64,000 nt of DNA from Clostridia bacterium (lineage in GTDB: Bacteria > Bacillota > Clostridia > Oscillospirales > CAG-272), in the NCBI GenBank assembly GCA_017456005.1, contig JAFTLJ010000014.1, forward strand, positions 17,310 through 81,309. Reading direction: 5' to 3'. A program made the translations under genes and the position numbers. Each line of letters begins with the position of its first letter. Within the stretch, counting starts at the first letter, position 1. Below the pieces are notes generated by a model. The model saw nothing but the letters and a program-made list of their open reading frames with translations, was not told where the DNA came from and did no database searches. Below are positions 25,158 through 43,351 of the stretch, piece after piece.

Positions 25158-25158
25158 A

Positions 25159-25775: not shown

Positions 25776-27014
25776 ATGAAAGTTTTAGTTATAAATAATT
25801 TGCTTATAGGAGAAGAAAATGCCACGGGAGCGACGTTAAAAAACATTTTTAGCGGATTTTCTGATATTGATATATTGGAATATACTTTTGTTCCTGATTC
25901 ATCTAGAGAATATTCTTTTAATGGTACACATATAGAAACTATTTGCAATCAAAAAACAAATTATTTGAATAAGTTTATACATAATTATCATCAGAAAAGT
26001 TTGAAAAGCAACACAGGGTTTTCTGATGAGACAAATGTTTCGTGGAAATCAAAGTTAAAGCTGAAATTAAAAAAAGATGCTCTGATGTGGAACGAGCTGA
26101 TTCCAATTAAAATCGAGAAAGAGTGTATGCAACAAATTATCAATTTTAGTCCGGAACTGATTTACACATTAGGTGCAGATATCAATGTGTTGCGAAATGT
26201 CATCAAATTGTCCGAACTTTTGAATATTCCCATTGTTCTTCATAATATGGATGATCTATATCATACGAAGTTTAATGGACATTCTTTTTTTCAGAAATTG
26301 GCAAAAAGAAAATTACAAAAATTATATAAAAAGGCATATGAACACAGCAAAAAAAGTTTGGCAATCGGTCCTAAAATGGCAAAGGAATACGAGGAACTGT
26401 TTGGTCTGCCGTTTGATTGGGCAATGAATTGTGTAGGCGATATACAGAGTGAGGTTGCTCCGGAAGAAAATTTGGCGATTTTTTCGGGAGGGTTACATGG
26501 TGGACGAGCTACCACATTGGCAAGCTTGGCACAAGCTTTGGAAGGTACGGCAATCAAACTGGAGATTTACACGGATGATAGAAATTTCGTCTCGTATGAA
26601 TCTTTGTTTGCGGGTTTAAAAAACACAAGGCTTTGCCATTACGTTCCAAATGAAAAGATGTTTGATAATTTGTCGCGCGCATCGATTTTGGTTCATGTGG
26701 AGTCTTTTGAAGAAGAATACATAAAGTATTTTCGTTTGTCTATGTCTACAAAAATTCCAGAATATCTCGTTGCTAAAAGACCTGTTTTTTGTATTGGCCC
26801 AAAGGAGATCGCTACATCCTCGTATATTGAAAATTCAGGAGTAGGTGTGGTAGCCGAAAGCTATGAGGATATATCCGATAAATTAACCCAATTAACATCA
26901 GCCGATAAAAAGGAAGAGATTTTATGTTGCATAGAGACCAGAATAAATGAGGATTTCAGACGCGCGGATGTTCAGAAAAAGATTTGCGCGGTTTTTGAAT
27001 ACAACGTAATGTAA
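25776..27014 (+). CDS. putative GT-B-fold glycosyltransferase-like protein
   Basis: 412-aa ORF. The C-terminal segment ESFEEEYIKYFRLSMSTKIPEYL resembles the ExxxxxxE region of GT4 enzymes. The assignment is weak. Confidence 0.45.
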   Translation: MKVLVINNLLIGEENATGATLKNIFSGFSDIDILEYTFVPDSSREYSFNGTHIETICNQKTNYLNKFIHNYHQKSLKSNTGFSDETNVSWKSKLKLKLKKDALMWNELIPIKIEKECMQQIINFSPELIYTLGADINVLRNVIKLSELLNIPIVLHNMDDLYHTKFNGHSFFQKLAKRKLQKLYKKAYEHSKKSLAIGPKMAKEYEELFGLPFDWAMNCVGDIQSEVAPEENLAIFSGGLHGGRATTLASLAQALEGTAIKLEIYTDDRNFVSYESLFAGLKNTRLCHYVPNEKMFDNLSRASILVHVESFEEEYIKYFRLSMSTKIPEYLVAKRPVFCIGPKEIATSSYIENSGVGVVAESYEDISDKLTQLTSADKKEEILCCIETRINEDFRRADVQKKICAVFEYNVM

Positions 27015-27031
27015 AGCGGAGACGATAAAAT

Positions 27032-27835
27032 ATGAAAAAAATATCTATTGTAACCCCGTCGTTTAATGGAGCAAATTTTTTAGAAAGATGTATAAAGTCC
27101 ATAATGGGCCAGACCTATCAGAATTTTGAGCATATTATTGTGGATGGCGGCTCAACCGACGAAACGTTATCGATATTAAAGCGATACGAAGGACAGTACA
27201 ATATGCGTTGGATATCCGAAAAGGATGAGGGGATGTATGATGCTATTTGCAAGGGATTTTCTATAGCGGATGGAGAAATATTTGCCTGGCTTAATACAGA
27301 CGATATTTATATGCCATGGACCTTGCAGATTATCGCTGAAGTTTTTGAAAATGACAAATATCAATGGTGTACGGCAAGTCAGAGTTCTTATATAACAGGA
27401 GACGGAAAATTCTATTTCAGAACACGCACAGTAGGGCCTAAGTCCTATTCGCGAAAAAATATTGCGCGCGGCTATCACGACGGCAGAATATTGCCTTTTA
27501 TTCAGCAGGAATCCACTTTCTGGACCAGAAAACTGTGGGAAAAGAGTGGAGGTGTTGATAAATCCTACCGTTTGGCAGGAGACTTTTATTTGTGGAAAAC
27601 ATTTGCTGAATACGAGCCTCTGTATACGCTAAATACTGTTTTGGCGGCATTTTGCGTTCACAAAGGACAGTTATCGTCAAATGCTGATGCGTATATGCTT
27701 GAATTACCCAAACTTTCTTTAAATGGTAAGATTCTTCATAAAACCAGATTATTGTTTTTATATTTAAATATTTTTCACCCGTATCACGGTAATTTGATAC
27801 AAATAGAGGAAATTATCAATGGAAATTATGAATGA
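27032..27835 (+). CDS. glycosyltransferase family 2
   Basis: ISIVTPSFNGANFLERCIKSI...VDGGSTD...NTDD, a typical GT2 N-terminal domain. Confidence 0.85.
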   Translation: MKKISIVTPSFNGANFLERCIKSIMGQTYQNFEHIIVDGGSTDETLSILKRYEGQYNMRWISEKDEGMYDAICKGFSIADGEIFAWLNTDDIYMPWTLQIIAEVFENDKYQWCTASQSSYITGDGKFYFRTRTVGPKSYSRKNIARGYHDGRILPFIQQESTFWTRKLWEKSGGVDKSYRLAGDFYLWKTFAEYEPLYTLNTVLAAFCVHKGQLSSNADAYMLELPKLSLNGKILHKTRLLFLYLNIFHPYHGNLIQIEEIINGNYE

Positions 27836-29039
27836 TGCTAAAAAGAGCTACATACTCTATTTTTGGATGTTTTTGTGCTTTTTTATTACGGATTCGCCGT
27901 TTGCCAATTATGCTGCAAACGGGTATGTTTTTAAAGTAACTGCACCCATGATTTTGGGTATACTTTATCCTGCCTATTGCATGATATTTAAAAAATACAC
28001 TTTAAGCAGGAGTTATACGCTGGTTACTCTGTTTATTTTCTCTATGGTTGCATTATCAAGTGCTTTGGGTGGCGGCGGACTGCGTATGACTGTGGCGTAT
28101 TTGGGAATGTGGCTGTTCGGATTATTTTTTAGCAAAACATATTCCTTTGAGGATTTTAGACGTGCGTTTATGAACTCTGTGATTTTCATAGCAATATTTT
28201 CTATTATTATATATCTTGTTTTACTTTTATTTCCTGTAAGTAAATATATGTTTCCTACAGTGTTATACAGTAACGGTATGACGGTCGACCTTTTCTTTAC
28301 TACGTTCAGATTGATGTCTGGCCCTGTGCGCCGCAATTACGGTATGTTTTGGGAACCCGGTACTTATCAAGCATATTTAAATTTAGCGTTGTTGTTTTTA
28401 TTCAAGGAAAAGAAGTGTGACTTTTTTTTACCGAAAGTTATAGTGTTAGTGTTAGCCATCATAACCACTTTTTCAACAACGGGATTCATAGTTATGGCCC
28501 TTATTCTTTGCTACAGTATGCTGACGAAAAGCGATGCTTTGCAAAAAAGCGCATTTAAAAAAATTTCATTTGTTGTTTTTATGATTGGAGTATCTATTAT
28601 TGCTCTTGCTAATGCAGATATGATAGCCAGACTTGTTTTTGATAAAATGGAGGCTGGCAATAACTCATATGATAGCAGAATGCTATCCATATTAGGCAAT
28701 TTGATAGTTACTCTGAAATATCCATTTTTGGGCGCTGGTTACGGAAATAGTGCGCAGGTTTTAAATCAGTTGGTTGAGTCGACCTCCGGTTTTATCCATC
28801 AAACTAATACGTTTACAAATTATTTTGCAACATTCGGTATTTTTATAGGCGGTCTTTTTATTTTCTTTTGGATGAAAATTTCAAGCGCGCTTTCAAAAAA
28901 TTTGATGGAGAATATTTTTACAATAGTTATTTTGACTTTGATTACATCTGGAGAAAATTTTTTGAGTTCATTTGCTTTTATCCTGTTTTTAATATATGGG
29001 TTTAGGTTATCCAAATTGGACAATTGGTTTAAATTATAA
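27819..29039 (+). CDS. wzy: O-antigen/repeat-unit polymerase (Wzy-like) membrane protein
   Basis: 406-aa ORF with about 10-11 hydrophobic segments, in a Wzx-containing locus. No sequence motif was verified. Confidence 0.55.
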   Translation: MEIMNDAKKSYILYFWMFLCFFITDSPFANYAANGYVFKVTAPMILGILYPAYCMIFKKYTLSRSYTLVTLFIFSMVALSSALGGGGLRMTVAYLGMWLFGLFFSKTYSFEDFRRAFMNSVIFIAIFSIIIYLVLLLFPVSKYMFPTVLYSNGMTVDLFFTTFRLMSGPVRRNYGMFWEPGTYQAYLNLALLFLFKEKKCDFFLPKVIVLVLAIITTFSTTGFIVMALILCYSMLTKSDALQKSAFKKISFVVFMIGVSIIALANADMIARLVFDKMEAGNNSYDSRMLSILGNLIVTLKYPFLGAGYGNSAQVLNQLVESTSGFIHQTNTFTNYFATFGIFIGGLFIFFWMKISSALSKNLMENIFTIVILTLITSGENFLSSFAFILFLIYGFRLSKLDNWFKL

Positions 29040-29069
29040 TTGTGATATGAGAATTAGGAGATGACATGT

Positions 29070-30335
29070 ATGAATGTATTGATGTTTACAAATTATGCTC
29101 CTGCTGATATACAAAAAAAGCAGGGGAGCGTTATGGTAAACGAGGGTTGGGTTTATGGATTGCAACAAAATTTGCTCAGGATAAAAGGTATAAAACTTCA
29201 TGTTATGTATCCTCAGAATATTGACAAAGAGCCTATTTTTGAGTCTATAAGCGATAATTTTGTTGCAAATGGTTATTATCATAACTCAAATAACTTTTCG
29301 GACGAAGAAAATATAAAGCTTCAGATCAAAAATTACCGTTATATCAGTGATATCGATGTGATTCATATAATGGGAACAGAGTTTTTTCACTCGCTGGCGG
29401 CCTTTCATGCGATGAATGAATTGGGACTGAATGGTAGAACAGTAATTTCCATTCAAGGGCTGGTTTCATTTTGTGCAAAACACTATGATTATGGTGTTCC
29501 TAAAAAATATTGTTATGGATTTTCTATTCAAGAAATATATAATGGATTTTCTTCAATAAATAAACGCAAGGAAGAGTTTGAGGCGAGAGGAGTTTTTGAA
29601 ACTCGTCTGCTCAGCGAGTGCAAAAATGTTATTGGCAGAACAAATTGGGATAAACGATGCACAAGATTAATTAACCCCGATATCCAATATTATCATAATG
29701 GTGAGAATTTAAGATCAAGTTTCTATAGTGAGGAGCGCTGGAATATAGAAAATTGCGAAAAATATTCTATTTTTGTATCTCAAGCGACTTATCCTTTGAA
29801 GGGATTGCATCATGTATTGAGTATATTACCCGATATAGTGAAAAAGTATCCCGAAACAAAATTATATGTTGGAGGAAAATCTCCGATAAATACAAGTCAT
29901 TGGAAATGTAATTCCTATGCTAATTATCTTAATGCTTTAATAAAACGTGGGAATTTAGAGGATCATGTGTGTTTCTGCGGATCTTTGTCTGAAGAAGATA
30001 TAAAAAAGCGCTATTTAAAATCACACGTGTTCCTTTCTCCTTCCAATATTGAGAATTCCTCGAATTCAATCGGTGAAGCAATGATGCTGGGTGTTCCCGT
30101 TGTTGCCTCAAATGTTGGTGGAACAGATTCTGTTTTAGAAAACGGCAAGAGTGGTTTTTTGTATCCTTTGACAGAATCGTATATTATGGTTCAAGAAATT
30201 TTTGATATTTTCGGAAGTAATGATTTGGCAAATTATGTATCGAAAAATGCTATTGAATATTCGTCTCATTTGTATGATTCTAATGAAAATATTAGAACTT
30301 TGCTTGAAATTTACAGGCGATTAAGTAATAGCTAA
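29070..30335 (+). CDS. glycosyltransferase, GT4
   Basis: ENSSNSIGEAMMLGVPVVASNVGG motif. ATG lies 9 nt after AGGAG. Confidence 0.8.
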   Translation: MNVLMFTNYAPADIQKKQGSVMVNEGWVYGLQQNLLRIKGIKLHVMYPQNIDKEPIFESISDNFVANGYYHNSNNFSDEENIKLQIKNYRYISDIDVIHIMGTEFFHSLAAFHAMNELGLNGRTVISIQGLVSFCAKHYDYGVPKKYCYGFSIQEIYNGFSSINKRKEEFEARGVFETRLLSECKNVIGRTNWDKRCTRLINPDIQYYHNGENLRSSFYSEERWNIENCEKYSIFVSQATYPLKGLHHVLSILPDIVKKYPETKLYVGGKSPINTSHWKCNSYANYLNALIKRGNLEDHVCFCGSLSEEDIKKRYLKSHVFLSPSNIENSSNSIGEAMMLGVPVVASNVGGTDSVLENGKSGFLYPLTESYIMVQEIFDIFGSNDLANYVSKNAIEYSSHLYDSNENIRTLLEIYRRLSNS

Positions 30336-30398
30336 TATACCTTATTATAAACATTATAAACTCGACGGTCATGGTCTTCAAAAAAGGAGAGACGATTT

Positions 30399-31325
30399 AT
30401 GATACAAGATAAAGTGTCAGTAATAATCACGACATATAAAGCCACAGATCGATTAAGAGATGCGATCAAATCGGTATTGAATCAAACATATGAACATTTT
30501 GAGGTTTGTGTTGTAGATGACAATAATCCCGATACGGAATCGAGAGCGTATACGGAAAGAATCATACAGGAGTTCGCAGATCATCCAAAATTGAAATATA
30601 TAAAACATGAACGAAACAAAAATGGTTCGGCGGCAAGAAATACGGGAATTTGTGCTACAGATGGAGAATTTATTGCTTTTTTGGATGATGATGATATATA
30701 TTACAGCGATAGATTGGCGAAATGTGTGGGGGCGCTGAAAAAAGATGTCTTATTGGGCGGCGTATATACTCATGTAGATATATATGAAGATGAAATTCCG
30801 ATCGGCGTAAGACATGCGGAATTCTCCGGGAAAATCTGGAAGGACTTTCTCCTTAACGAGGGTGTAATGGGTACCGGAAGCAATATGTTTTTACGAAGAA
30901 CATGTATGACGGAAATTGGCTTTTTCAATGAAGCATTTCTTCGCTATCAGGATGTTGAATACATGCTGAGATTTACGGAAAAATATGCTCTTTTGGCGTT
31001 ACCTCAAGTTTTGGTCAGAAAAAATATTCAAGTTACCAATATTCCGGAATACAAAAAATATAAGGCAAATAAACTTTTGATTTTTAATACGTTTGGCTAT
31101 TTGATCAATCGATTGAGTGAAGAAGAACGGAACCATTTTTATTATCAGCATTATATGGCTTTGTACAGAACGGCGATTGCTTCGTGTAATAGAAAAAATA
31201 TTGCCGAAGCGATGATTGATTGCGAAAAAATGAATCCCAAGTTGACTAAAAAGGAAAAACTGAGAGGATATTTTCCGCGTGTGTTTAAAGTATACGCTAA
31301 AATCAGAAAGAAACTAAATCGATAA
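30399..31325 (+). CDS. glycosyltransferase family 2
   Basis: VSVIITTYKATDRLRDAIKSV...VDDNNPD...LDDDD, a GT2 signature. Confidence 0.85.
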   Translation: MIQDKVSVIITTYKATDRLRDAIKSVLNQTYEHFEVCVVDDNNPDTESRAYTERIIQEFADHPKLKYIKHERNKNGSAARNTGICATDGEFIAFLDDDDIYYSDRLAKCVGALKKDVLLGGVYTHVDIYEDEIPIGVRHAEFSGKIWKDFLLNEGVMGTGSNMFLRRTCMTEIGFFNEAFLRYQDVEYMLRFTEKYALLALPQVLVRKNIQVTNIPEYKKYKANKLLIFNTFGYLINRLSEEERNHFYYQHYMALYRTAIASCNRKNIAEAMIDCEKMNPKLTKKEKLRGYFPRVFKVYAKIRKKLNR

Positions 31326-31360
31326 ATTTTATATAACTTGTGATTTGGAGAGGGGTAAAT

Positions 31361-32569
31361 ATGAATGTTTTGATTGTAGGTGCTAATTTTTCTAACAAAG
31401 GCGCACAGTCTATGCTGTTCATTGCTGTTGATGAATTGAAAAAACGTTTTCCGGAAAGTAAAGTATATTTTGGACGTGTGGAGCCTTTTGACAATCAGTT
31501 GTATCAATTTGATGAAATTTATTATTCGAAAGAATCCAAAGAAACCGCCTTGAACCGCATTAAAAGTTTTTCAACGGTTTCAACGGTTGCCAAAGATTGC
31601 GTCAAAACCCTTTTGGGACGACGCAATAACACGTGGAGAATTTTGGCGTTAAAAAAACGGATCAAGGATATAGACCTGATCATTGATATCAGCGGTTTTA
31701 ATCTTGGAGAAAAATGGGATATATATACACATGAGGAGTATTTGAGAAATATCAGGCTTGCCAAAAAGTATAATATTCCGATGATTTTGATGCCGCAGTC
31801 TTTTGGACCGTTTAACTACACAAAGGAAAAAGCTTATTTGCTTGAGCAGATGCGTGAACTTCTGAAATATCCTAAACTAATTTTTGCCAGAGAGCAGGAA
31901 GGATATGATTATTTGATTCAGACGTTTGATTTGAAAAATGTCAGATTGTCGACAGATTTGGTTTTGCAAAATGCCGGCGTCGATTTGAAAAATATATATC
32001 GCGCTATTCCCGAGAAAAAAGTGCCCTGCTTGAATACTGAGAATAATGTGGGCATCGTTCCCAATTTCCAATGCATCCGACACGGTAATAAAGAGATGAT
32101 GTTGGATGTATATATTTCTCTTATCAACAAGCTGATCGAAAAGGGCAAGCACGTGTATATTTTCAGACATTCCCGCGAGGATCTGGATGTTTGCAAAATG
32201 ATAAAGAACGAGTTCGTAAACACAGAATCCGTTATCCTTTTGGAGCAGGATTTTAACTGTTTTGAATATGATGATTTTGTAAAACAATTTCAGTATATCA
32301 TTTGTTCGAGATATCACGGCATCGTTCATGCATATCGCAATTACGTCCCGGCTATTTTGTTGGGCTGGGCGATTAAATATGAAGAATTGGCCCGTAATGT
32401 CGGACAGGGAGAATACGCGTTTGATATTACGGATAAAGCGTTCAATAAGAATTTGGTACTGAAGGCAATCGATTCCATGGATGCAAACATTGAAGCAAAT
32501 GTTGCGACCATTTCTGATAATGTCCAAAGAATCCAAAAAGATAATTGCTTTGATTATATTACTGAATAA
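31361..32569 (+). CDS. polysaccharide pyruvyl transferase family protein
   Basis: NKGAQSML N-terminus and SRYHGIVHA motif, typical of CsaB/WcaK-like pyruvyl transferases. Confidence 0.7.
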   Translation: MNVLIVGANFSNKGAQSMLFIAVDELKKRFPESKVYFGRVEPFDNQLYQFDEIYYSKESKETALNRIKSFSTVSTVAKDCVKTLLGRRNNTWRILALKKRIKDIDLIIDISGFNLGEKWDIYTHEEYLRNIRLAKKYNIPMILMPQSFGPFNYTKEKAYLLEQMRELLKYPKLIFAREQEGYDYLIQTFDLKNVRLSTDLVLQNAGVDLKNIYRAIPEKKVPCLNTENNVGIVPNFQCIRHGNKEMMLDVYISLINKLIEKGKHVYIFRHSREDLDVCKMIKNEFVNTESVILLEQDFNCFEYDDFVKQFQYIICSRYHGIVHAYRNYVPAILLGWAIKYEELARNVGQGEYAFDITDKAFNKNLVLKAIDSMDANIEANVATISDNVQRIQKDNCFDYITE

Positions 32570-32626
32570 TATGCTCTATAGTATCGAATATGGATTTTAT
32601 TATTTACGGTAATCAAAAGGGGTTAT

Positions 32627-34165
32627 ATGATGGAAAGCAGATTTAAAAATTCGATTCGTAATTTGTCTTGGGGCGTTGTTAATAAAATGGTGACGCTCCT
32701 CCTTCCGTTTGTCACGAGGACAATTGTTTTATACTTATTGGGTGCAAAGTTTCTTGGCATAGGCACGCTGTTTTCGTCGGTGCTTAATTTTCTCAGCTTG
32801 GCGGAATTGGGATTGAATTCGGCGATTGTTTATATTATGTATAAACCAATCGCAGAGAATGACTACGAAACCATTTCGGCGTTGCTGAATTATTACAGAA
32901 AATTATACCGGGTGATCGGAACTGTAATTTTGGTGATCGGCACTGCCATTTTGCCTTTCATTCCATATTTGATCAAAGGCGATGTTCCGGAAGGACTGAA
33001 TGTCTATTCCGTATACTATTTGTTTTTGTTGAATTCGGTTATCAGTTATTTTTTTGCGGGATATAAGCAGAGCTTGCTGACGGCATACCAGAGACAGGAT
33101 ATTATCACAAATATTGCTACGTTAAGCAATGTCGCTTTACAGGTGTTTCAGATTTTGTTGCTGTATCTTACAGAAAGTTATTACGTATATGCAATCGTTC
33201 CGATACCGATCACAATTTGCGTAAACATTTTAAACGCCATAATAACAAAGCGTAAATTCCCGGAAATCAAACCCTGCGGTATGATTTCGCAAGAATTGAA
33301 AAAGAATATCCATAAACGGTTGAGTGGACTTTTCGGAACAAAATTGAATAGCATCGTTGTACATTCGGCAGATACCGTCGTTATTTCCGCATTTTTGGGA
33401 TTAACGTTGACTGCTCAGTACGGAAATTATTATATGTTATTTAATGCAGTTCATGGCTTTGTGATCGTAATATATACCTCATTGGCGGCAAGCATCGGTA
33501 ATAAGCTGGCTGTGGATTCCATAGAAAAAAATTATCATTTGTTTAAACATTTAAGCTTTTTAAACGCATGGATCGTTTGCTTTTGCTGCACCTGCTTCTT
33601 GTGTTTGTATGAACCCTTTATGAAGATATGGGTGGGCGAAGAACTTTGTCTGGGAATTATTTTTGTCATTTTGTTTTGCTTGTATTTCTTTGTTTTTGAT
33701 ATACAAAGAACAATTTTGGTCTTCAAGGACGCAGCGGGACTTTGGCATATTGACAAAATAAGACCTTATATTTCAATGCTCGTTAATCTTGTGAGCAATT
33801 TGATCTTGGTGCAATTTATAGGAATTTACGGCATTGTCGTCTCATCGATTCTTTCGTTTTTGATCTCTGTTCCGTGGGTGAATAAAGTTCTTTTCGATCA
33901 TTTGTTTCACAAAAAACCGGGAAAAAACCTGCTTAGTATTTTAATTTATTTTGCAGCGACGGTGTTGATTGGAGCGAGCACGTATGCTATTTGCTCTCTT
34001 TGTCATGACGGGTTCCTTGGCTTGGTCGAACGGTTGATCGTGTGCGTATTTTGTTCCAATGCATTTTTCGTCCTTTTGTTTATTCGATCGGATAGTTTCA
34101 AATATTGGAAAAAAGTGTTGCTTGATTTTGTAAATAGAAAGTTGAGGAAATCTCATGGGAATTAA
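32627..34165 (+). CDS. wzx: Wzx-type oligosaccharide flippase (MOP superfamily)
   Basis: 512-aa ORF with 12-14 hydrophobic segments. The N-terminus SIRNLSWGVVNKMVTLLLPFVTRTIVLYLLG is typical of polysaccharide biosynthesis proteins. Confidence 0.8.
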   Translation: MMESRFKNSIRNLSWGVVNKMVTLLLPFVTRTIVLYLLGAKFLGIGTLFSSVLNFLSLAELGLNSAIVYIMYKPIAENDYETISALLNYYRKLYRVIGTVILVIGTAILPFIPYLIKGDVPEGLNVYSVYYLFLLNSVISYFFAGYKQSLLTAYQRQDIITNIATLSNVALQVFQILLLYLTESYYVYAIVPIPITICVNILNAIITKRKFPEIKPCGMISQELKKNIHKRLSGLFGTKLNSIVVHSADTVVISAFLGLTLTAQYGNYYMLFNAVHGFVIVIYTSLAASIGNKLAVDSIEKNYHLFKHLSFLNAWIVCFCCTCFLCLYEPFMKIWVGEELCLGIIFVILFCLYFFVFDIQRTILVFKDAAGLWHIDKIRPYISMLVNLVSNLILVQFIGIYGIVVSSILSFLISVPWVNKVLFDHLFHKKPGKNLLSILIYFAATVLIGASTYAICSLCHDGFLGLVERLIVCVFCSNAFFVLLFIRSDSFKYWKKVLLDFVNRKLRKSHGN

Positions 34166-35123
34166 ATCTGTGATTAAAAAAATTATTATTCAGAGAAACG
34201 GATCGAAGAAAAAATTAAATTCTGAGTATTTGAAAAAATACGATAAATATTCTTTCAGAGGAACGAATTGTACGAATGTTCAGCAATATGAAGCGGTAAT
34301 AACGCGGCTTTATCATTCTATTGAAAAGGGTCTTTCGTATCAGAATTATAGGGTTGGCTTCGGAAAGGCGAATATCGAAGCTTTGCTATCAACTCTGGAA
34401 AAATACAGCTCTGAAATGAAAGATTATGATGTCTTCTTTTATCGAACAGCACTTTCAACATTGTTTGAATATATTAAAAAGAACAAAGAACATGGACATT
34501 TTGATGAGAATTTGGAACAAAGAGTAAAAGCTTTGCCTGGAAATCCCAATATTTTGGGTGGGATTATTAAATTTGAACCATTAACGGAAGAGAATGTCCA
34601 AAAATTGAATTTTAACGATTTTCTGAAGGATAGACATAGTATCAGACATTTTTCGGGTGTCCCTGTAGATGTTGAAAAATTGAAGGCGGCAGTGCGCTTG
34701 GCTCAGTATACTCCTTCTGCGTGTAACAGACAAGGGTGGCGAACCCGTATTATTGCAAATAAAGATTTACTGAACAAAGTGTTGAGCAATCAAAATGGAA
34801 ATACAGGCTTTGGTCAGGAAATTGATAAACTTCTTATTGTTACAACGGATATCCGATATTTTAACAGAGACAGAGAAACCTACCAAGCGTTCATTGATGG
34901 AGGTATGTACGCAGAAAATCTAATCAATGCGTTGCATTTTTACCATATTGGCTCCATTCCACTTAGCGCTTCTTTGACAAAGGAACAGGAAACCAACGTG
35001 AGAGACTTCATCGGAATGGATGATGCGGAAGTGCTGATTTTGTTTATTGGCGTAGGATCATATCCGGAACAGTGTCAGACAACCAGATCTGAAAGACGTG
35101 ATGCGGAAATCACAGTGCTTTAA
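34155..35123 (+). CDS. nitroreductase family protein
   Basis: RHSIRHF...PSACNRQGWR, nitroreductase-fold motifs in the C-terminal half. Confidence 0.75.
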   Translation: MGIKSVIKKIIIQRNGSKKKLNSEYLKKYDKYSFRGTNCTNVQQYEAVITRLYHSIEKGLSYQNYRVGFGKANIEALLSTLEKYSSEMKDYDVFFYRTALSTLFEYIKKNKEHGHFDENLEQRVKALPGNPNILGGIIKFEPLTEENVQKLNFNDFLKDRHSIRHFSGVPVDVEKLKAAVRLAQYTPSACNRQGWRTRIIANKDLLNKVLSNQNGNTGFGQEIDKLLIVTTDIRYFNRDRETYQAFIDGGMYAENLINALHFYHIGSIPLSASLTKEQETNVRDFIGMDDAEVLILFIGVGSYPEQCQTTRSERRDAEITVL

Positions 35124-35424
35124 TTGTTGGGATAGAATTCTTCGAACGCATAATTTTTGAAGAATATTGCTATTTTATTGAAATTGCGTGATTGCTAATT
35201 AACGATAGAAATAAAATTTGAAGCAACATATAAAGCAACATATACTGACTTCGTCCCTCCACGTTTACAGCGTCACATAGCATTTGCTCATTCTAAAAAG
35301 TAGACGTACTTAATTGCTAAGTCAGAAAAAGAAAGCTTTGTCGAAAACCTTAGGAACAGATACTTTTACCAAAGTTTTTTGCCAAGATTTTTTCAAAAAA
35401 AGCGGAAATATGAGAAAAAATCAA

Positions 35425-35940
35425 ACGAAATGTCTTCTACTTGCGCTGGGATATGCGACTCGCCTTTAGCCCTTGATCGAAAATTCCCGAAGCATTTGCT
35501 TGAGGTAAAAGGGAAGAGCGTATTTGATTGTATGATTGACGATATTGACACGCTTATTATCACGTGAGACTATCTGCTTGACTGCAGACTCACTGAATTT
35601 ATAAATACACAAAAGCCCAAAACAGCTTATGCGTTATGCGATGCTATTGGACGAATGAGCAGAAGCTTCTCAAATGTGACATCGTAACTATCGATGAAAA
35701 CGACAAGATACTCGAAAGGGCAGAGAAATCGTTGCACTCGTGACGCGTTAATACGTACCTCCTTTCTACTTTTATGCAAAAGGAGGATATAAATCCTATT
35801 TGAACATGCATCTATGCCGGTTTTAGTGTTGATACTCCCTGAAAATGTGATTCTGCAAACAGACGGGTGTTTATGCGATGCAAATGCCGGGTGGGTATCA
35901 TAATATAGTAAAAATCGAAAGCTACGAAAAGTACAGACCA
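35425..35940 (+). pseudogene. decayed, internally deleted copy of the sugar-1-P nucleotidyltransferase gene at 40752-41486
   Basis: Nucleotide collinearity with 40752-41470 is visible by eye (KCLLLALGYATRL-stop). The ATG is lost, stop codons are present, and a central block of about 230 bp is missing. The upstream leader 35335-35424 is also duplicated (compare 40655-40751). Confidence 0.8.
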
Positions 35941-35974
35941 AATATATGGACCAAATATATGGACCAAATATATG
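35936..35974 (+). repeat. perfect 3 x 13-bp tandem repeat (GACCAAATATATG)
   Basis: Read directly from the sequence, about 35 nt upstream of the fkp start. Confidence 0.95.
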
Positions 35975-36009
35975 GGAATAAGCAAATAAATATTAGGAGA
36001 TGACTAACA

Positions 36010-38973
36010 ATGACCCACACATCACTATTCCTCTCCCAATCCTATTTGGACACATGGGACGACTACAAACGCTCACTCACGCGCGATAACTTCGCGCGCT
36101 GGGATTACGTAATACTCACCGCCTCGAACCCCCAGCAGGCGCAGGGCTTTGAGGCTCAGATAGCGGAGCGCAAAAAGGCAGGTTTTTTGCCCCGCAACAC
36201 GCATTTTGCCGTTATCCCCGACAGGGACGGCAAGCGCATCGGAAGCGGCGGTGCGACGCTCGGCGTTATCAAATATATAGCGGAGCACACCGGAAAGAGC
36301 GATTTCTCGGGACTTCGCATACTCGTTATACACTCGGGCGGCGACTCTAAAAGAGTACCGCAGTATTCGGCTCTCGGCAAGCTCTTTTCGCCTGTCCCAC
36401 ATGAGCTTCCCAACGGCAGAGCCGCAACGCTTTTCGATGAATTCATGATCGCCATGTCGAGCGTTCCCTCCAGAATCCGCGAGGGTATGCTCCTGCTCTC
36501 CGGTGACGTGCTCTTGCTTTTCAATCCCTTGCAGATTGACTACAGCGGCAACGGTGCTGCGGCTATATCCTTCAAAGAAGACGTTGAAACGGGCAAGAAC
36601 CACGGCGTGTTCTTGAACGGCGAAAACGGCAAGGTCGCAAAGTTCCTGCATAAGCAGACGGTAGAATCCTTGCGCGCATACGGCGCCGTAAACGAGCGCG
36701 GTGCGGTCGATATCGACACTGGCGCCGTAATATTCTCCACGGATATGCTCGCCTCTCTCTACTCGCTCATTTCGACGGATGCTGACTACGATAAATATGT
36801 GAACGATACTGTTCGCCTTTCTCTCTACGGCGACTTCCTTTATCCGCTCGCTACGGAATCCACTCTCGAACAGTTCTATCTTGAAAAACCCGAGGGCGAA
36901 TTCTGCGACGAGCTTCACGAGGCTCGCACAGCAGTGTGGGAAGCTCTGCGTCCCTATAGACTCAAGCTCTTGCGCCTCGCGCCTGCGAAGTTTATCCATT
37001 TCGGCACGACGAATGAGATACTCAAGCTCATGTCGGGCGGTATCGACCAGTACAAGGAGCTCGGCTGGAGCAAGCATGTAAACAGCAGCATCACAAGAGC
37101 TACAGCGGGCTACAACAGCGTTCTGTCGAGCAGAGCCAAGGTCGGCAAGGATTGCTACCTTGAGGTCTCTTACGTTCACAGAAACGCTAAAATTGGCGAT
37201 AACGTAGTTCTTTCCTACATAGACATACACGATGAAGAAGTGCCTTCCGACGTAGTCCTCCACGGACTCAAGCAGAAGGACGGCAAGTTCGTAGCGAGAA
37301 TCTACGGCGTCAAGGATAACCCGAAGGAAGACAAGCTCTTCGGTATGCCCATCTCCGAATTCCTTGCTAAAAACGGCATAGATGTTTCCGAGCTCGGTGC
37401 CGACTACAACGGCACTCTCTGGACGGCGGATATGTATCCCGCTTGCGACACGATAGTTGAAGCGGTAGCGGCGGCGCTCAATATCTACGATATGGCGCAT
37501 GACGGCGGCGATGTTGATGCGTGGAAAAACTCTGTTCGTAAATCCCTCTGCTCGGGCTTCAATGCTGCAGACCCCGAAGCGATAATCGCTTGGGACAACC
37601 GCATGCAGGAGCTTGTACGCATGGACGGTATTGCAAAGCTCATCATCTCGGGCAGACCCGCAAGGGAAGCGAAGGACGTTCTGCGCTCGAACAAGCTCAC
37701 TCCCGTGCAGGAGCAGTGGCTTGAAAAAAGACTTGAAGCCGCTGACTTTGCGGAAACGATAAGACTTTACTACTACATAGGAACGGCGCTCGGCGGCATT
37801 GAGGGCGAGAAGCTTCTCGGCAAATGCTTCGACACCATTTCCGAAACTATACTCAAAGGAACAATAGACAATCTTCAGTATAACGAAAACTGCAAGATAA
37901 CAACAGATAAACACACCGTAAAACTTCCTCTGCGTGTAAACTGGGGCGGCGGTTGGTCCGATACCCCCCCGTATTGCAACGAAAAAGGTGGCACTGTACT
38001 TAACGCGGCGATACTCTTAAACGGCGAAAAGCCCGTTGAAGTAACGCTCGAAATAATAGATGAACACAAAATCGTATTCGACAGCCGCGATATGGACGTA
38101 CACGGCGAATTTGACAGCATCGAGCCTTTGCAGGCTACGGGCGACCCGTACGACTCATTCGCACTTCAGAAGGCGGCGCTTCTCGCGTGCGGAATACTCC
38201 CGAAAGAGGGCGGCGACCTTGACGAGATTCTCACTCGCCTTGGCGGCGGCTTCGTGATGCATTCCGAGGTAACTAACGTACCGAAGGGAAGCGGTCTTGG
38301 CACGAGCTCCATTCTCTCCGCGGCTTGCGTAAAAGCGATATTCGAGTTTATGGGTATCGAGCATACGGAGGACGACCTCTACCAGCACGTTCTCGTTATG
38401 GAGCAGATTATGTCCACGGGCGGCGGTTGGCAGGACCAGGTAGGCGGTGTTACACCGGGAATCAAGTATATCACGACGATGCCTGGTATCGCGCAGAAGA
38501 TAAAGGTTTCCCACGTAGAGATACCCGAAGAAACCAAGAAGGAGCTCAACGAGCGCTTCGTGCTTATCTACACGGGTCAGCGCAGACTTGCGAGAAACCT
38601 GCTTCGCGACGTTGTGGGCAGATACGTAGGCAACGAGCCCGACTCGCTCTTCGCTCTCAACGAGATACAGAAAACGGCGGCTCTTATGAAGTTTGAGCTT
38701 GAGAGAGGTAATGTGGAAGAATTCGCAAACCTTCTCAACTACCACTGGGAGCTTTCTCAGAAGGTGGATAAAGGCTCTACGAATACACTTATCGACCAGA
38801 TATTTGCAAGCGTTGACGAATTTGCGGCAGGCAAACTCGTTTGCGGCGCGGGCGGCGGCGGCTTCCTCCAGATGCTCCTTAAGAAGGGCGTGGACAAAGC
38901 TGACGTGCGCGCGAGACTCAAGGAAGTATTCCAAGATTCCGCAGTCGATGTCTGGGATTGCACTCTCGTGTAA
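36010..38973 (+). CDS. fkp: bifunctional L-fucokinase / fucose-1-phosphate guanylyltransferase
   Basis: 987-aa ORF. It combines an N-terminal fucose-pyrophosphorylase-like domain with a C-terminal GHMP kinase (PKGSGLGTSSILSAA). This is the same architecture as Bacteroides Fkp. Confidence 0.8.
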   Translation: MTHTSLFLSQSYLDTWDDYKRSLTRDNFARWDYVILTASNPQQAQGFEAQIAERKKAGFLPRNTHFAVIPDRDGKRIGSGGATLGVIKYIAEHTGKSDFSGLRILVIHSGGDSKRVPQYSALGKLFSPVPHELPNGRAATLFDEFMIAMSSVPSRIREGMLLLSGDVLLLFNPLQIDYSGNGAAAISFKEDVETGKNHGVFLNGENGKVAKFLHKQTVESLRAYGAVNERGAVDIDTGAVIFSTDMLASLYSLISTDADYDKYVNDTVRLSLYGDFLYPLATESTLEQFYLEKPEGEFCDELHEARTAVWEALRPYRLKLLRLAPAKFIHFGTTNEILKLMSGGIDQYKELGWSKHVNSSITRATAGYNSVLSSRAKVGKDCYLEVSYVHRNAKIGDNVVLSYIDIHDEEVPSDVVLHGLKQKDGKFVARIYGVKDNPKEDKLFGMPISEFLAKNGIDVSELGADYNGTLWTADMYPACDTIVEAVAAALNIYDMAHDGGDVDAWKNSVRKSLCSGFNAADPEAIIAWDNRMQELVRMDGIAKLIISGRPAREAKDVLRSNKLTPVQEQWLEKRLEAADFAETIRLYYYIGTALGGIEGEKLLGKCFDTISETILKGTIDNLQYNENCKITTDKHTVKLPLRVNWGGGWSDTPPYCNEKGGTVLNAAILLNGEKPVEVTLEIIDEHKIVFDSRDMDVHGEFDSIEPLQATGDPYDSFALQKAALLACGILPKEGGDLDEILTRLGGGFVMHSEVTNVPKGSGLGTSSILSAACVKAIFEFMGIEHTEDDLYQHVLVMEQIMSTGGGWQDQVGGVTPGIKYITTMPGIAQKIKVSHVEIPEETKKELNERFVLIYTGQRRLARNLLRDVVGRYVGNEPDSLFALNEIQKTAALMKFELERGNVEEFANLLNYHWELSQKVDKGSTNTLIDQIFASVDEFAAGKLVCGAGGGGFLQMLLKKGVDKADVRARLKEVFQDSAVDVWDCTLV

Positions 38974-38985
38974 GGGGGTGGGGAT

Positions 38986-39411
38986 ATGCTGAAGAATATT
39001 TCCCCCATCATCTCCCCGATGCTCCTCAAGGTCCTGTGCGAAATGGGACACGGCGACGAGATAGTTCTTGCAGACGCGAACTTCCCCTCGGAGAGCATCG
39101 CTCATAACAATCAGATAATACGCGCGGACGGCATCGGCGTTCTGGACCTCCTTAACGCCATCCTCCCGCTTTTCCCGCTCGACCAGTATGACAGTGAAAA
39201 CTTCATCGTCATGCAGGTCGTGGACGGCGACCCCATCCCGACGATATGGGATGAATTCAAGAAGATCATCGACAAATACGAACCCGAATGCAGTATGACG
39301 TTTATTGACAGATTCGACTATTACGAAAGGTCAAAAAAAGCTTACGCGGTAATCGCCACCGGCGAAAAAGCGCAGTATGCGAATGTGGTGCTGAAAAAAG
39401 GGGTTATTTAA
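38986..39411 (+). CDS. fucU: RbsD/FucU family sugar mutarotase
   Basis: 141-aa ORF with the motif GHGDEIVLADANFP. Confidence 0.85.
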   Translation: MLKNISPIISPMLLKVLCEMGHGDEIVLADANFPSESIAHNNQIIRADGIGVLDLLNAILPLFPLDQYDSENFIVMQVVDGDPIPTIWDEFKKIIDKYEPECSMTFIDRFDYYERSKKAYAVIATGEKAQYANVVLKKGVI

Positions 39412-39437
39412 AACATTATGTCGGAGGAAGTTTTTCT

Positions 39438-40613
39438 ATGACCGCATACGAAACATTTGAACAAACCTACCGTAAGCCACCTGAATACACCACATTTACC
39501 CCATACCGTATCTGCCCGCTCGGTGCTCATTCCGACCATCAGCTCGGCAAGATAACGGGCTTTGCCATTGACAAAGGCATACATATCGCGTACGGACCGA
39601 AGCAGAACGGTATTATTGAGATACAGTCCGTGCAGTTCCCGAAGCGAGCGCAGTGGCACGTAGCGTCCACCCCTTCCGAGAAGCAGGGAGACTGGGCCGA
39701 CCACCTTCGCGGTGCTACAATAGCTCTTAACAGCCGCTATCCTCTGCGCACAGGCCTTTGCGCGGTGCTCGACGGCGAGCTTCCGATAGGCGGTCTTTCC
39801 TCGTCTGCGGCGGTGATTATCACTTTTCTATCGGCCCTCTGCCAGATGAATGGTATTCACTTGACAGAATCAGAGCTTGTGCAGATATCGCTCGAAGCAG
39901 AGAATAAATACGTCGGCGTTTCCTGCGGCAAGCTCGACCAGAGCTGTGAGGTATATTCCAGAAAGGACAACCTCCTTTATATGGACCTCAAGGATGACAG
40001 CTACGAGCTTATCCCTCAGCATCCCGACATGAAGCCGTATAAGATAGCGATATTCTTCAGCGGCTTGGAGCGCAGTTTGGCAAGCTCGAAATTCAATATG
40101 CGCGTTGACGAATGCCGTTCCGCTGCATATGCCCTTATGGCATATGCGGGAATGGACTACGGCAAATTTAATGAAACAAACTTGCGTGACGTTCCCAGAG
40201 AAGTATACGAGCAGTATAAGGACAAGCTTCCCGAAAACTGGCGCAAACGTGCCGAGCATTGGTACACTGAATTTGACCGTGTGCAGAGAGGCGCCGAAGC
40301 ATGGCGCAGAGGCGATATAGAAGAATTCGGCAGACTTTCGTTCGAAAGCGGACACTCGTCTATCTACAACTGGGAAACAGGCTCTCCCGAGCTTATCAAG
40401 CTCTATGAGATTATGACCAAGACTCAAGGCATCTACGGCGGACGCTTCTCGGGCGCAGGCTTCAAGGGCTGTTGCATGGCGCTTATCGATCCTGCTTACG
40501 AAGAAAGCATCGTAGAAAAAGTAACACGCGAATATCTCGCGGCGTTCCCCGAGCTTGAGGGAAAATATTCCGCACATATCTGCGAAAGTGCAGACGGAGT
40601 AAAACTCCCATAA
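39438..40613 (+). CDS. galactokinase-family (GHMP) sugar-1-kinase, substrate unknown
   Basis: Motifs PLGAHSDHQ, PIGGLSSSAAV, NMRVDEC and GGRFSGAGFKGC. Confidence 0.8.
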   Translation: MTAYETFEQTYRKPPEYTTFTPYRICPLGAHSDHQLGKITGFAIDKGIHIAYGPKQNGIIEIQSVQFPKRAQWHVASTPSEKQGDWADHLRGATIALNSRYPLRTGLCAVLDGELPIGGLSSSAAVIITFLSALCQMNGIHLTESELVQISLEAENKYVGVSCGKLDQSCEVYSRKDNLLYMDLKDDSYELIPQHPDMKPYKIAIFFSGLERSLASSKFNMRVDECRSAAYALMAYAGMDYGKFNETNLRDVPREVYEQYKDKLPENWRKRAEHWYTEFDRVQRGAEAWRRGDIEEFGRLSFESGHSSIYNWETGSPELIKLYEIMTKTQGIYGGRFSGAGFKGCCMALIDPAYEESIVEKVTREYLAAFPELEGKYSAHICESADGVKLP

Positions 40614-40751
40614 GGAAGTTTTACAAAAAAACTTAATACATAAAACCAAAAGCTTTGGCGAGAACCTTAGGAACGAACACGTTTGACTAAAGTTTTTTTG
40701 CCAAGCTTTTTTTCAAAAAAGCGAAAAAAACAGCGGAGGAATGAACTAAAC

Positions 40752-41486
40752 ATGAAATGTCTTATACTTGCGGCGGGATATGCAACTCGCCTTTACCCAC
40801 TCACGGAAAACTTCCCGAAACCTTTGCTTGAAGTAAAAGGGAAGACCATACTTGACTGGCTGATTGACGACATCGACACGCTCGGCGCGGTTGACGAATA
40901 CATTGTTATCTCAAACCATAAATTTGCTCACCATTTCGATAAATGGGCTGCTGAAAAAACGCAGAAAGTAACCGTTGTTGACGACGGCACAAGCACGAAC
41001 GAAACCAGGCTCGGTGCTGTTAAAGATATACAATATGCTATTGATAAGCTTGGGCTCGATGATGATATACTCGTAATTGCAGGTGATAATTTGCTCGACT
41101 TCAGCCTCACTGAGTTTATCAAATATGCGAAAGCTAAAAATAGCTCCTGCATCATGCGTTACTATGAAGCAAACGAGCAGAAGCTTCTCAAATGCGGCGT
41201 CGTAACGATCGATGAAAACGATAAGATACTCGAAATGACAGAGAAATCTCCTACACCTGCAACGCATTGGTGCACGCCTCCTTTCTATTTTTACACGAAA
41301 GAAGATGCAAAACTTGTTCAGGCAGGAATAGATTCAGGATGCGGCGTTGACGCTCCCGGGAGCTACATCGCATGGCTCTGCAAGCAGACGAACGTTTATG
41401 CTATGGAAATGCCCGGCAAACGCTATGACATAGGCAACCTTGAAAGCTACGAAAAAGTGCAGAAGGAGTATAACGGAATATGCTGA
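40752..41486 (+). CDS. sugar-1-phosphate nucleotidyltransferase
   Basis: MKCLILAAGYATRLYPLTENFPKPLL, an NTP-transferase signature. ATG after GGAGG. Confidence 0.85.
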   Translation: MKCLILAAGYATRLYPLTENFPKPLLEVKGKTILDWLIDDIDTLGAVDEYIVISNHKFAHHFDKWAAEKTQKVTVVDDGTSTNETRLGAVKDIQYAIDKLGLDDDILVIAGDNLLDFSLTEFIKYAKAKNSSCIMRYYEANEQKLLKCGVVTIDENDKILEMTEKSPTPATHWCTPPFYFYTKEDAKLVQAGIDSGCGVDAPGSYIAWLCKQTNVYAMEMPGKRYDIGNLESYEKVQKEYNGIC

Positions 41487-42562
41487 CACCTAACGTAAAT
41501 CTCACAGGAAAAACGGTTCTCGTTACGGGTGCGGCTGGCTTTGTAGGCGCTAACCTCGTAAAAGAACTTCTTAACACAGTAGAAAAGATACACATCGTCG
41601 GTATCGACAATATGAACGATTACTACGACGTGTCCATCAAAGATTACCGCCTCGCTGAAATAGAAAAACTCGCGGCGGAAAAGACTGGTTGCAAATGGAC
41701 TTTCGTGAAGGGCAATATCGCCGATAGAGCGCTTATCGACAGACTTTTCGCCGAATACGGATTTGCGGTAGTCGTAAACCTTGCGGCTCAGGCGGGCGTA
41801 AGATATTCCATCACAAACCCCGACGTGTACATAGAATCCAATATCATCGGCTTCTATAACATACTAGAAGCATGCCGCGCAAATCCCGTTGAGCATCTTG
41901 TTTACGCGTCAAGCTCCTCGGTATACGGTTCAAACAAGAAGATACCTTATTCCACCGACGATAAGGTTGACAATCCCGTGTCCCTCTACGCGGCTACGAA
42001 GAAAAGCAACGAGCTTATGGCTCACGCTTACTCGAAGCTTTACAATATCCCGTCCACGGGACTTCGCTTCTTCACGGTATACGGTCCTGCAGGCCGTCCC
42101 GATATGGCTTACTTCGGATTTACGAACAAGCTTCGTGAGGGTAAGACTATTGAAATATTTAACTTCGGTAACTGCAAACGCGACTTTACATACGTTGACG
42201 ATATAGTTACAGGCGTTAAGCACATTATGCAGAACGCTCCCGAAAAAGTAACGGGTGAAGACGGACTTCCCGTACCTCCTTACAGAGTTTACAATATCGG
42301 TAACAACAGCCCCGAAAATCTGCTTGACTTCGTTGATATCCTTCAGCAGGAGCTTATTTGTGCTAAAGTTCTTCCCGAAGACTATGACTTCGAAGCTCAT
42401 AAAAAGCTCGTTCCAATGCAGGCGGGTGACGTTCCGATAACGTATGCTGATACAAGTGCGCTTGAAAGAGATTTCGGCTTCAAGCCGAACACGAGCTTGA
42501 GAGAGGGCTTGAGGAAGTTTGCTGAGTGGTACTATGAGTTCTATCTCGAAAAAGGTGAATAA
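41480..42562 (+). CDS. NAD-dependent epimerase, UDP-glucuronate 4-epimerase-like
   Basis: GAAGFVG, SSSSVYG, YAATKKSNE (YxxxK) and RFFTVYGPAGRPDMA. Confidence 0.7.
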   Translation: MLTPNVNLTGKTVLVTGAAGFVGANLVKELLNTVEKIHIVGIDNMNDYYDVSIKDYRLAEIEKLAAEKTGCKWTFVKGNIADRALIDRLFAEYGFAVVVNLAAQAGVRYSITNPDVYIESNIIGFYNILEACRANPVEHLVYASSSSVYGSNKKIPYSTDDKVDNPVSLYAATKKSNELMAHAYSKLYNIPSTGLRFFTVYGPAGRPDMAYFGFTNKLREGKTIEIFNFGNCKRDFTYVDDIVTGVKHIMQNAPEKVTGEDGLPVPPYRVYNIGNNSPENLLDFVDILQQELICAKVLPEDYDFEAHKKLVPMQAGDVPITYADTSALERDFGFKPNTSLREGLRKFAEWYYEFYLEKGE

Positions 42563-42576
42563 ATATATAGATTACC

Positions 42577-42606
42577 AAGGACATCTGCATGCAGATGTCC
42601 TTTTTG
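42577..42606 (+). terminator. terminator at the end of the polysaccharide operon
   Basis: AAGGACATCTGCATGCAGATGTCCTT followed by TTTT. Confidence 0.75.
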
Positions 42607-42695
42607 CCAATTGTCAATGGCTCACCGATACATTGACAATATGGTGCTTTCGTGGTATCATAAATATACATTCAGCTACAAACTTGCGAGGATTT

Positions 42696-43136
42696 ATGTA
42701 TATGGATGATATTAAGCAAAAATTATGCCCTAATTGCCGGGCGAATGTGGAAGGCTTGGTGCACAGGTGCAATTGTTGCGGTGCAACTCTTGATAAAAAG
42801 CCGTCGTTTTTCATTTGGCATACTTATATGACACAGGAAAGCGGAGATTTACAAGCTTTAACCAAAAAAATCTTTGATGAGAAAGCTGTGCCCGAAAACC
42901 CGGATCATCTTGAGCATGTGAAGAAAATCATTTTCGATATATATTGCTATCCGCAAGATATGCTTGGGGATATGACAAACAAGGTGATCTGCTATAGAAC
43001 GAAAAAAGAATGCCGTATCAGAATTGTTTTAGATTATGAGAAGTATATATCTTCAAATTCTTTTGAAAAAACAGAGATGATTACCGATGGTATTATTGCA
43101 GGGATAGAACTGTTTGAAAGTAGATTTAAAAAATAA
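42696..43136 (+). CDS. hypothetical protein with N-terminal CxxC...CxxC zinc-ribbon
   Basis: 146-aa ORF (MYMDDIKQKLCPNCRANVEGLVHRCNCCGATL...). It is the last gene of the element before the right junction. Confidence 0.55.
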   Translation: MYMDDIKQKLCPNCRANVEGLVHRCNCCGATLDKKPSFFIWHTYMTQESGDLQALTKKIFDEKAVPENPDHLEHVKKIIFDIYCYPQDMLGDMTNKVICYRTKKECRIRIVLDYEKYISSNSFEKTEMITDGIIAGIELFESRFKK

Positions 43137-43146
43137 TAAATCATGC

Positions 43147-43175
43147 AAAAAAGCCTTATGTATCAAGGCTTTTTG
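43147..43175. terminator. bidirectional hairpin terminator at element right end
   Basis: AAAAAGCCTT/AAGGCTTTTT. It contains the stop codon of the truncated spoVT' ORF. Confidence 0.6.
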
Positions 43176-43351
43176 CTGTTTAAACCCGCTCTATCGCCAA
43201 AATCGATCATCGCTATGCAGAACCTTTCTGTCTGTGTCAACGTCATCTGCGACGGGTCGCCCTCGCGAATACGCATGGTTCTTCTTATTTCTTTAGGTAT
43301 AACGACTCTTCCGAGGTCGTCGATACGTCTTACAATACCGGTAGCTTTCAT
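43163..43351 (-). CDS. truncated SpoVT' (33 native codons plus a 29-codon element-encoded tail)
   Basis: 62-aa ORF MKATGIVRRIDDLGRVVIPKEIRRTMRIREGDP + SQMTLTQTERFCIAMIDFGDRAGLNSKKP. Confidence 0.6.
   Translation of the reverse strand: MKATGIVRRIDDLGRVVIPKEIRRTMRIREGDPSQMTLTQTERFCIAMIDFGDRAGLNSKKP
43227..43270. other. right junction of element (core CGGGTCGCC 43253-43261)
   Basis: The core is identical to 9627-9635. The element-side arm is GTGTCAACGT (43234-43243). The 11-mer TCTGTCTGTGT (43227-43237) also occurs at 9606-9616. Confidence 0.8.
43253..43351 (-). pseudogene. spoVT: spoVT 5' segment (codons 1-33, AbrB-type swapped-hairpin N-terminus)
   Basis: MKATGIVRRIDDLGRVVIPKEIRRTMRIREGDP is nearly identical to the B. 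subtilis SpoVT N-terminus. GGAGG RBS upstream. Confidence 0.9.

Follow-up and report, generated by a model that had tools for sequence, protein, structure and literature searches.

The closest described counterparts of the genes considered here come from plants and from Bacteroides. In plants, galacturonokinase (GalAK; EC 2.7.1.44, Arabidopsis At3g10700), a kinase of the galactokinase-derived GHMP clade, works ahead of a UDP-sugar pyrophosphorylase (USP/SLOPPY) and beside a UDP-glucuronate (UDP-GlcA) 4-epimerase; Bacteroides fragilis, which lives in the gut and uses salvaged fucose for its surface glycans, has a two-domain bifunctional L-fucokinase/GDP-L-fucose pyrophosphorylase (FKP; 5yys, 9iit). 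We describe a block of five genes from a Clostridia bacterium (contig JAFTLJ010000014.1, positions 17,310 to 81,309; this whole stretch of 64,000 nucleotides is called the window) in which counterparts of both systems stand side by side. The 6.5-kb block lies at the 3' end of a Wzx/Wzy-type polysaccharide locus, on an integrative element of about 33.6 kb (Table 1), and is probably a nucleotide-sugar supply module that turns free fucose and hexuronate into GDP-fucose and UDP-uronates. A sequence-only reading had placed five open reading frames (ORFs) at 36010-42562 and had proposed two kinase-then-pyrophosphorylase routes; the coordinates match the ORFs that we find, and both routes appear sound as judged by domains, residues and synteny.

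In the predicted scheme, free L-fucose would be brought to anomeric equilibrium by FucU and phosphorylated to beta-L-fucose 1-phosphate by the C-terminal GHMP domain of FKP; the N-terminal domain of the same protein would turn the fucose 1-phosphate into GDP-L-fucose. In the second route the GalAK-clade kinase would phosphorylate C1 of a free hexuronic acid, namely galacturonate and perhaps also glucuronate, since Phe here takes the place of the Tyr of plant GalAK. Its co-inherited partner, the small nucleotidyltransferase, would then convert the sugar 1-phosphate to a UDP-sugar, and the Uge-like 4-epimerase would interconvert UDP-galacturonate (UDP-GalA) and UDP-GlcA. The element would in this way feed its own glycosyltransferases from scavenged sugars, because neither GDP-mannose 4,6-dehydratase (gmd) nor UDP-glucose dehydrogenase (UGDH) was found in a host that nevertheless degrades fucosylated glycans and hexuronates.

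Table 1. Features of the window, with positions counted from its first nucleotide
Feature	Coordinates	Strand	Evidence
FKP-type bifunctional L-fucokinase/GDP-L-fucose pyrophosphorylase, 987 aa	36010..38973	+	PF07959 and GHMP domains
L-fucose mutarotase FucU, 141 aa	38986..39411	+	NF011949 157.1 (cut-off 141); PF05025 150.5 bits
GalAK-clade sugar-1-kinase, 391 aa, probably galacturonate/glucuronate 1-kinase	39438..40613	+	Galactokinase signature, GHMP N and C
Intergenic leader, common to decayed upstream copy	40614..40751	+	DNA alignment
Small sugar-1-phosphate nucleotidyltransferase, 244 aa, candidate UDP-uronate pyrophosphorylase	40752..41486	+	PF00483 92.3 bits
UDP-glucuronate/galacturonate 4-epimerase-type SDR, 360 aa	41480..42562	+	PDB matches, SDR motifs
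Inserted element with polysaccharide locus and salvage block, ~33.6 kb	9620..43280, ends approximate	not assigned	Gap in congener G182
Wzx/Wzy-type polysaccharide locus	20733..35123	+	Pfam matches
Decayed nucleotidyltransferase gene copy with leader	about 35335..35950	+	DNA alignment, tblastn

The host genome gives the scheme its metabolic setting. It is a metagenome-assembled genome (MAG) of 2.12 Mb in 101 contigs, 94.65% complete, in which we found no canonical GalK, no GalT (PF01087), no UGDH, no separate GFPP and no gmd above the cut-off; a single FKP is present. Because gmd and UGDH were not found, no source of GDP-fucose or UDP-uronates other than the salvage routes is predicted in this genome. 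It also encodes five to six GH29 fucosidases, a fucose-isomerase-like (FucI-like) protein, the uronate isomerase UxaC and a GH28 enzyme, so that free hexuronates and fucose should be available. The earlier proposal that the polymer is built partly from scavenged sugars gains support from these genes and from the absence of gmd, UGDH and GalT among those found.

The identity of the second route turns first on its kinase. The motif PLGAHSDHQ (residues 27-35) had been taken in the sequence-only reading as a divergent N-terminal motif; it is present and does differ from that of galactokinases, but it is no oddity, being a hallmark of the GalAK clade. The pattern R.CPLGAH.DHQ, with Ala for the galactokinase Glu, occurs in 77 of 81 full-length family representatives, down to about 33% identity, and plant GalAK has the same GAHxDHQ with Ala for Glu, whereas the canonical galactokinases of the same bacterial order carry RVNLIGEHTDYNGG. 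One representative is annotated as a galacturonokinase, from Camellia sinensis (UniRef V9QNR1), and a full-length alignment with the window kinase shows 35% identity (212 bits, E 6e-69); the best solved galactokinase scores 136 bits. Phylogenetic placement, a check named with the original proposal, groups the kinase with plant GalAK: in a quick, unrooted maximum-likelihood tree (IQ-TREE) an 81-row clade holds both (SH-aLRT 99), seven canonical GalKs from the same bacterial order fall outside it, and the split from the GalKs has an SH-aLRT of 97-99. Eleven positions part the clade from GalK (P27, A30, H34, Q35, S64, L166, S208, S308, G315, F337 and P371), and the plant enzyme matches the window kinase at every one; of 76 clade members, 74-76 have A30, H34 and Q35, as does the plant enzyme, the canonical GalKs having E, Y and N. 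Some homologues are already labelled 'galactokinase/galacturonokinase' in IMG. As leads only, Yang et al. (2009) reportedly found that the A41E change abolishes the activity of Arabidopsis GalAK and that Y250F admits glucuronate.

The plant galacturonokinase nests within a large bacterial clade in the same tree (P0233, P0230, P0196), which hints, as a lead only, that the plant GalAK gene could be of bacterial origin. A bacterial origin has been proposed for plant FKP (PMC12732313).

The nucleotidyltransferase gene lies next to that of the kinase. Its ORF opens at TTG 40683; the conserved N-terminus MKCLILAAGYATRLYPLT starts at ATG 40752, which is probably the true start, giving 244 residues, and the short nucleotidyltransferase of the sequence-only reading is recovered from this ATG with a PF00483 match. 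Membership of USP/SLOPPY can be rejected, as plant USP is a protein of about 600 residues of the UDPGP family (PF01704), whereas the window protein is a small RmlA/GalU-type NTP_transferase; it may be a functional analogue of USP and not a member of its family.

The last gene of the block encodes a short-chain dehydrogenase/reductase (SDR), for which source names and Atlas cluster names offer only generic 'NAD-dependent epimerase' labels. Its best structural match is PDB 5u4q (E 1.4e-108), deposited under a dehydratase name, and it also matches 6zl6 (Bacillus cereus UGAepi; E 1.2e-38) and 6kv9 (MoeE5; 5.5e-32). It is 53.7% identical to the product of a Klebsiella pneumoniae gene adjoining ugd; from this ugd neighbourhood we take 5u4q to be Klebsiella Uge, and the position beside ugd is presumably that of uge/glaKP, a characterized UDP-GalA 4-epimerase. 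The motifs GAAGFVG, SSSSVYG and YAATK are present; Ser-Ser occupies the carboxylate-binding positions, and the Glu of the decarboxylases is missing. In these features and in the SDR triad the protein resembles Klebsiella Uge/GlaKP, B. cereus UGAepi, MoeE5 and plant GAE, and an SDR Rossmann motif, an S/T-Y-K triad, Ser-Ser and the lack of a decarboxylase Glu are the criteria for UDP-GlcA 4-epimerases described for BcUGAepi (PMC7984243). The triad, the Ser-Ser positions and the identity to the Klebsiella protein are consistent with the UDP-GlcA-4-epimerase-like SDR suggested from the sequence. Unlike Uge-type systems, that of the window is paired with a kinase and a nucleotidyltransferase, and its genome has no recognized UGDH to feed the substrate. 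Plasmid records carry homologues of the epimerase, at 73-75% identity in Lactococcus, Enterococcus faecalis and Bacteroides finegoldii and at 70.6% in Parabacteroides distasonis; the epimerase is therefore a widely travelled polysaccharide-locus gene.

The company that the kinase keeps elsewhere bears directly on its role. Close relatives (77-87% identity) are found in at least 592 species genomes, mostly MAGs of Acutalibacteraceae or Oscillospiraceae from animal guts. The nucleotidyltransferase adjoins the kinase in about 75 of the 80 loci fetched, the epimerase is adjacent in about 39, and FKP in only two. In other genomes the trio closes loci with Wzy, pyruvyl transferase and flippase genes and is followed by UGDH. 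Of 200 sampled species of the family, 30 have the kinase and 36 have UGDH; the two occur together in 11 genomes, at most 3 kb apart in at least eight of these. UGDH is positively associated with the kinase (11/30 kinase-positive as against 25/170 kinase-negative genomes), and the view of the kinase module as a substitute for UGDH across genomes is rejected on this ground.

Several points weigh against a supply module for GDP-fucose and UDP-uronates. The window kinase has Phe219 where galactokinases and plant GalAK have Tyr (Tyr250 of the plant enzyme, a residue linked to the choice between GalA and GlcA; the family has Y in 48 and F in 26 of 78), and it lacks the insertion of plant GalAK near the sugar motif. 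The nucleotidyltransferase fits no characterized subfamily, matching only PF00483, PF12804 and PF01128 in Pfam and reaching no equivalog model, so its nucleotide and sugar are guesses. The SDR matches the UDP-HexNAc 4-epimerase WbgU (2.5e-39) as well as it does BcUGAepi, so that PDB scores alone do not part it from UDP-HexNAc epimerases. In many genomes the kinase-nucleotidyltransferase pair stands alone, away from polysaccharide and uronate genes, and in some it coexists with UGDH, so that salvage is not always needed. FKP reaches 450.7 bits against the NCBIfam equivalog NF009948, below the cut-off of 721, in a match that is nearly full length (63-969); no fucosyltransferase family is recognizable in the window's own polysaccharide locus; and the absences from the host genome rest on the MAG.

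Some of these points would suit a different assignment, in which the pair activates another sugar that merely occurs in the same polymers as uronic acids (for example a rare hexose, L-arabinose, or an amino or 6-deoxy sugar), perhaps with a nucleotide other than UDP. It would account for Phe219, for a nucleotidyltransferase without an equivalog, for the 11 of 30 kinase-positive genomes that also have the de novo UDP-GlcA route, and for pairs lying between unrelated genes, as in locus L009, where the neighbours encode a radical SAM protein and SpoVAD. We nevertheless regard it as unlikely, given that all 11 clade-specific positions are common to the plant galacturonokinase and that the pair is repeatedly and tightly linked to two enzymes of UDP-uronate metabolism.

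The kinase might instead be a non-Leloir galactokinase, with the nucleotidyltransferase making UDP-galactose from galactose 1-phosphate and the SDR acting as a UDP-galactose/UDP-glucose 4-epimerase. It has the GHMP fold, galactokinase signature domain and, as predicted, anomeric phosphorylation in common with the kinase of the Leloir GalK/GalT pair; it keeps the galactokinase residues R24, H31 and D33 and the catalytic Asp; it still scores 187.7 bits against the galactokinase model TIGR00131; and the lack of recognized GalK and GalT genes in the host would leave room for such an enzyme. That score is, however, below the cut-off of 226.65, the whole GalAK clade has Ala for the Glu of GEHTDY, the kinase clusters with the plant galacturonokinase and off the GalKs of its own order, and its relatives have Uge-type epimerase and UGDH genes as neighbours, not galE or galT, all of which makes a galactokinase rather improbable. 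An ordinary galactokinase can be rejected outright on the TIGR00131 score, the missing GEHTDY, the tree and the lack of GalT; the sequence-only reading had named an ordinary Leloir galactokinase with galT/galE partners elsewhere among the outcomes that would overturn it, and no GalT was found.

Separately, the locus G000:C55:34652-35761 (L087, L112) holds a second, very divergent galactokinase-family gene, encoding 421 residues with the motif SGNHTDHNRG and sharing 24% identity with the window kinase. This gene lies alone among the housekeeping genes gidA, gidB and rlmH; members of a similar class, with scores of about 140-155 bits, are common in the order.

The second route is weighed against plant GalAK and USP, with which it would have in common a kinase of the same clade, the same logic of kinase then pyrophosphorylase and a nearby UDP-GlcA 4-epimerase. 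It differs from them in being bacterial, in the kinase features given above, in the small pyrophosphorylase encoded next door, and in the placing of its genes within polysaccharide loci on a mobile element. The best reading is GalAK/USP salvage of the plant kind in a bacterial version, with a pyrophosphorylase of another family. A broader proposal, which we put forward tentatively and with somewhat less than even confidence, is that GalAK-type kinases and small nucleotidyltransferases form a dedicated and widespread bacterial pathway of UDP-uronic-acid salvage, a plug-in cassette on mobile polysaccharide loci that would let bacteria lacking UGDH build acidic polymers from the galacturonate and glucuronate of pectin or host; plant GalAK could then be bacterial in origin. 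A search of the open-access literature for galacturonokinase, glucuronokinase or UDP-GalA salvage in bacteria returned only plant, animal and biocatalysis work. If the kinase and nucleotidyltransferase do make UDP-GalA or UDP-GlcA, a route known from plants would have its first bacterial version, acidic capsules made from dietary pectin in many gut Clostridia that lack ugd would be explained, and two compact enzymes would give glycobiologists a source of UDP-GalA, a compound described as hard to obtain, the plant kinase being unstable (PMC7984243).

The first route is a new member of the known FKP family. The fusion architecture followed by FucU, already recognized in the sequence-only reading, is confirmed by domain searches: PF07959 (Fucose_pyrophosphorylase) covers residues 99-480 (290.7 bits, E 2.5e-86), the C-terminal kinase domains are GHMP_N (748-811) and GHMP_C (896-974), and FucU exceeds the cut-off of the L-fucose mutarotase model, the D-ribose pyranase model giving just 42.4 bits. 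Compared with B. fragilis FKP (BfFKP), the window protein has the same two-domain architecture (5yys, E 5e-68; kinase domain 191 bits), and a gut setting with salvage of fucose for surface glycans would be common to both; it differs in a strongly diverged N-terminal domain, for which pairwise search gives weak matches of 21.6 and 16.3 bits, in the fucU gene that follows and in the linkage to a second salvage cassette. The residues assigned to fucose binding, catalysis and pyrophosphorylase activity in the crystal study of BfFKP (PMC11982464) are kept as far as the alignment covers them. In the HMMER alignment all those of the fucokinase and fucose-binding set (R592, W599, D601, T602, E751, Q761, D762) are identical, as are H73, S78, R80, K89, D136, H168 and H272 of the pyrophosphorylase domain, where V137, G169 and F270 are matched too; K187 falls outside the printed alignment, its candidate equivalent, picked by eye, being K214 in FLHKQ. 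FKPs have been divided into clades A (plants and bacteria), B (Bacteroidota and trypanosomatids) and C (animals) (PMC12732313, 2025).

That the enzyme acts mainly on a fucose analogue such as L-galactose or D-arabinose, or is a kinase only, its N-terminal domain being inactive like that of animal fucokinases, would suit the weak N-terminal similarity, the missed equivalog cut-off and the arabinokinase activity that bacterial FKPs also show (PMC12732313), but it is very improbable in view of the conserved fucose-contacting and pyrophosphorylase residues, the bona fide L-fucose mutarotase gene directly 3' of FKP, the GT11 fucosyltransferase on a sister element (L113, below) and the failure to find a separate GFPP or gmd in the host genome.

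FKP had been expected to be uncommon in such Firmicutes. This holds within the family, where it occurs in five of the 200 sampled species, but Clostridia assemblies contain thousands of homologues, several of them already named FKP by NCBI. The window FKP and that of G200, from another genus (G200:C59:68761-71721), are 94% identical as proteins and only about 77% identical as DNA, which indicates strong purifying selection and not a very recent transfer.

The block had also been thought to lie on a mobile element, and comparison with a congener bears this out. In genome G182 (contig C65) the sequences matching window positions 9174-9620 and 43280-43382 are only about 33 nt apart, and the intervening 33.6 kb is accordingly an insertion; a relaxase and a DUF927 protein are encoded within it, at 14.8-19.4 kb of the window. 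By Pfam matches its polysaccharide locus encodes an initiating transferase, an SDR, four GT4 and two GT2 glycosyltransferases, two acetyltransferases, Wzy, a pyruvyl transferase, a flippase and a nitroreductase-like protein. GC content is mosaic, being 0.34-0.40 in most of the glycosyltransferase block (about 24-36 kb), 0.40-0.47 at the 5' end of the locus and 0.53 in the fkp block, as against 0.46 for the genome.

The junction between locus and block records how the two were joined. The decayed nucleotidyltransferase copy upstream of fkp aligns as DNA with 40655-41470, with an internal deletion of about 200 bp and the leader kept, and by tblastn is 52% identical over 83 residues; a 13-bp tandem repeat in three copies (GGACCAAATATAT) lies 3' of it, just ahead of fkp. 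In G200 the order is kinase, nucleotidyltransferase, FKP, FucU, DNA-collinear with the decayed nucleotidyltransferase, FKP and FucU of the window. The decayed copy is a scar of cassette joining, since it is collinear with the intact nucleotidyltransferase-FKP junction of G200.

A sister element (L113:1-21173, ENA contig k141_78459) occupies the same chromosomal site, with flanks 94-98% identical to those of the window. Its order is kinase, nucleotidyltransferase, epimerase, FKP, FucU, at 89-92% DNA identity to the window cassettes, followed by an extra NTP_transferase of 296 residues after fucU; its glycosyltransferase region, which includes the GT11 fucosyltransferase, is unrelated to that of the window. 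A further variant (L114) has the kinase, nucleotidyltransferase and epimerase trio without FKP. From these orders, and from the differing glycosyltransferase regions, it follows that the cassettes are shuffled modules joined to exchangeable glycosyltransferase regions. The element would represent a mobile polysaccharide locus freed, through its own salvage genes, from the de novo sugar-nucleotide pathways of its host, which is relevant to the switching of capsules and to adaptation to gut niches with fucosylated and pectic glycans. The difference between L113 and the window looks like serotype-like switching by element variants.

A scan of 34.8-43.4 kb for promoters and terminators gave counts no better than those of shuffled sequence and no convincing internal terminator on the plus strand, and a scan of the window for tRNA genes found none. 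No RNA sequencing runs are listed with a match to the region; the DNA sequencing runs with matches are animal gut metagenomes, with shares that are mostly small. Within the glycosyltransferase block, an ORF of 412 residues (25776-27014) has no Pfam match and may encode a new transferase or a protein associated with the polymerase. The last ORF ahead of the right junction (42519-43136) has a weak match to Imm44 (E 3e-4, below the cut-off) and is kept at the same place in L113, with 97.6% DNA identity.

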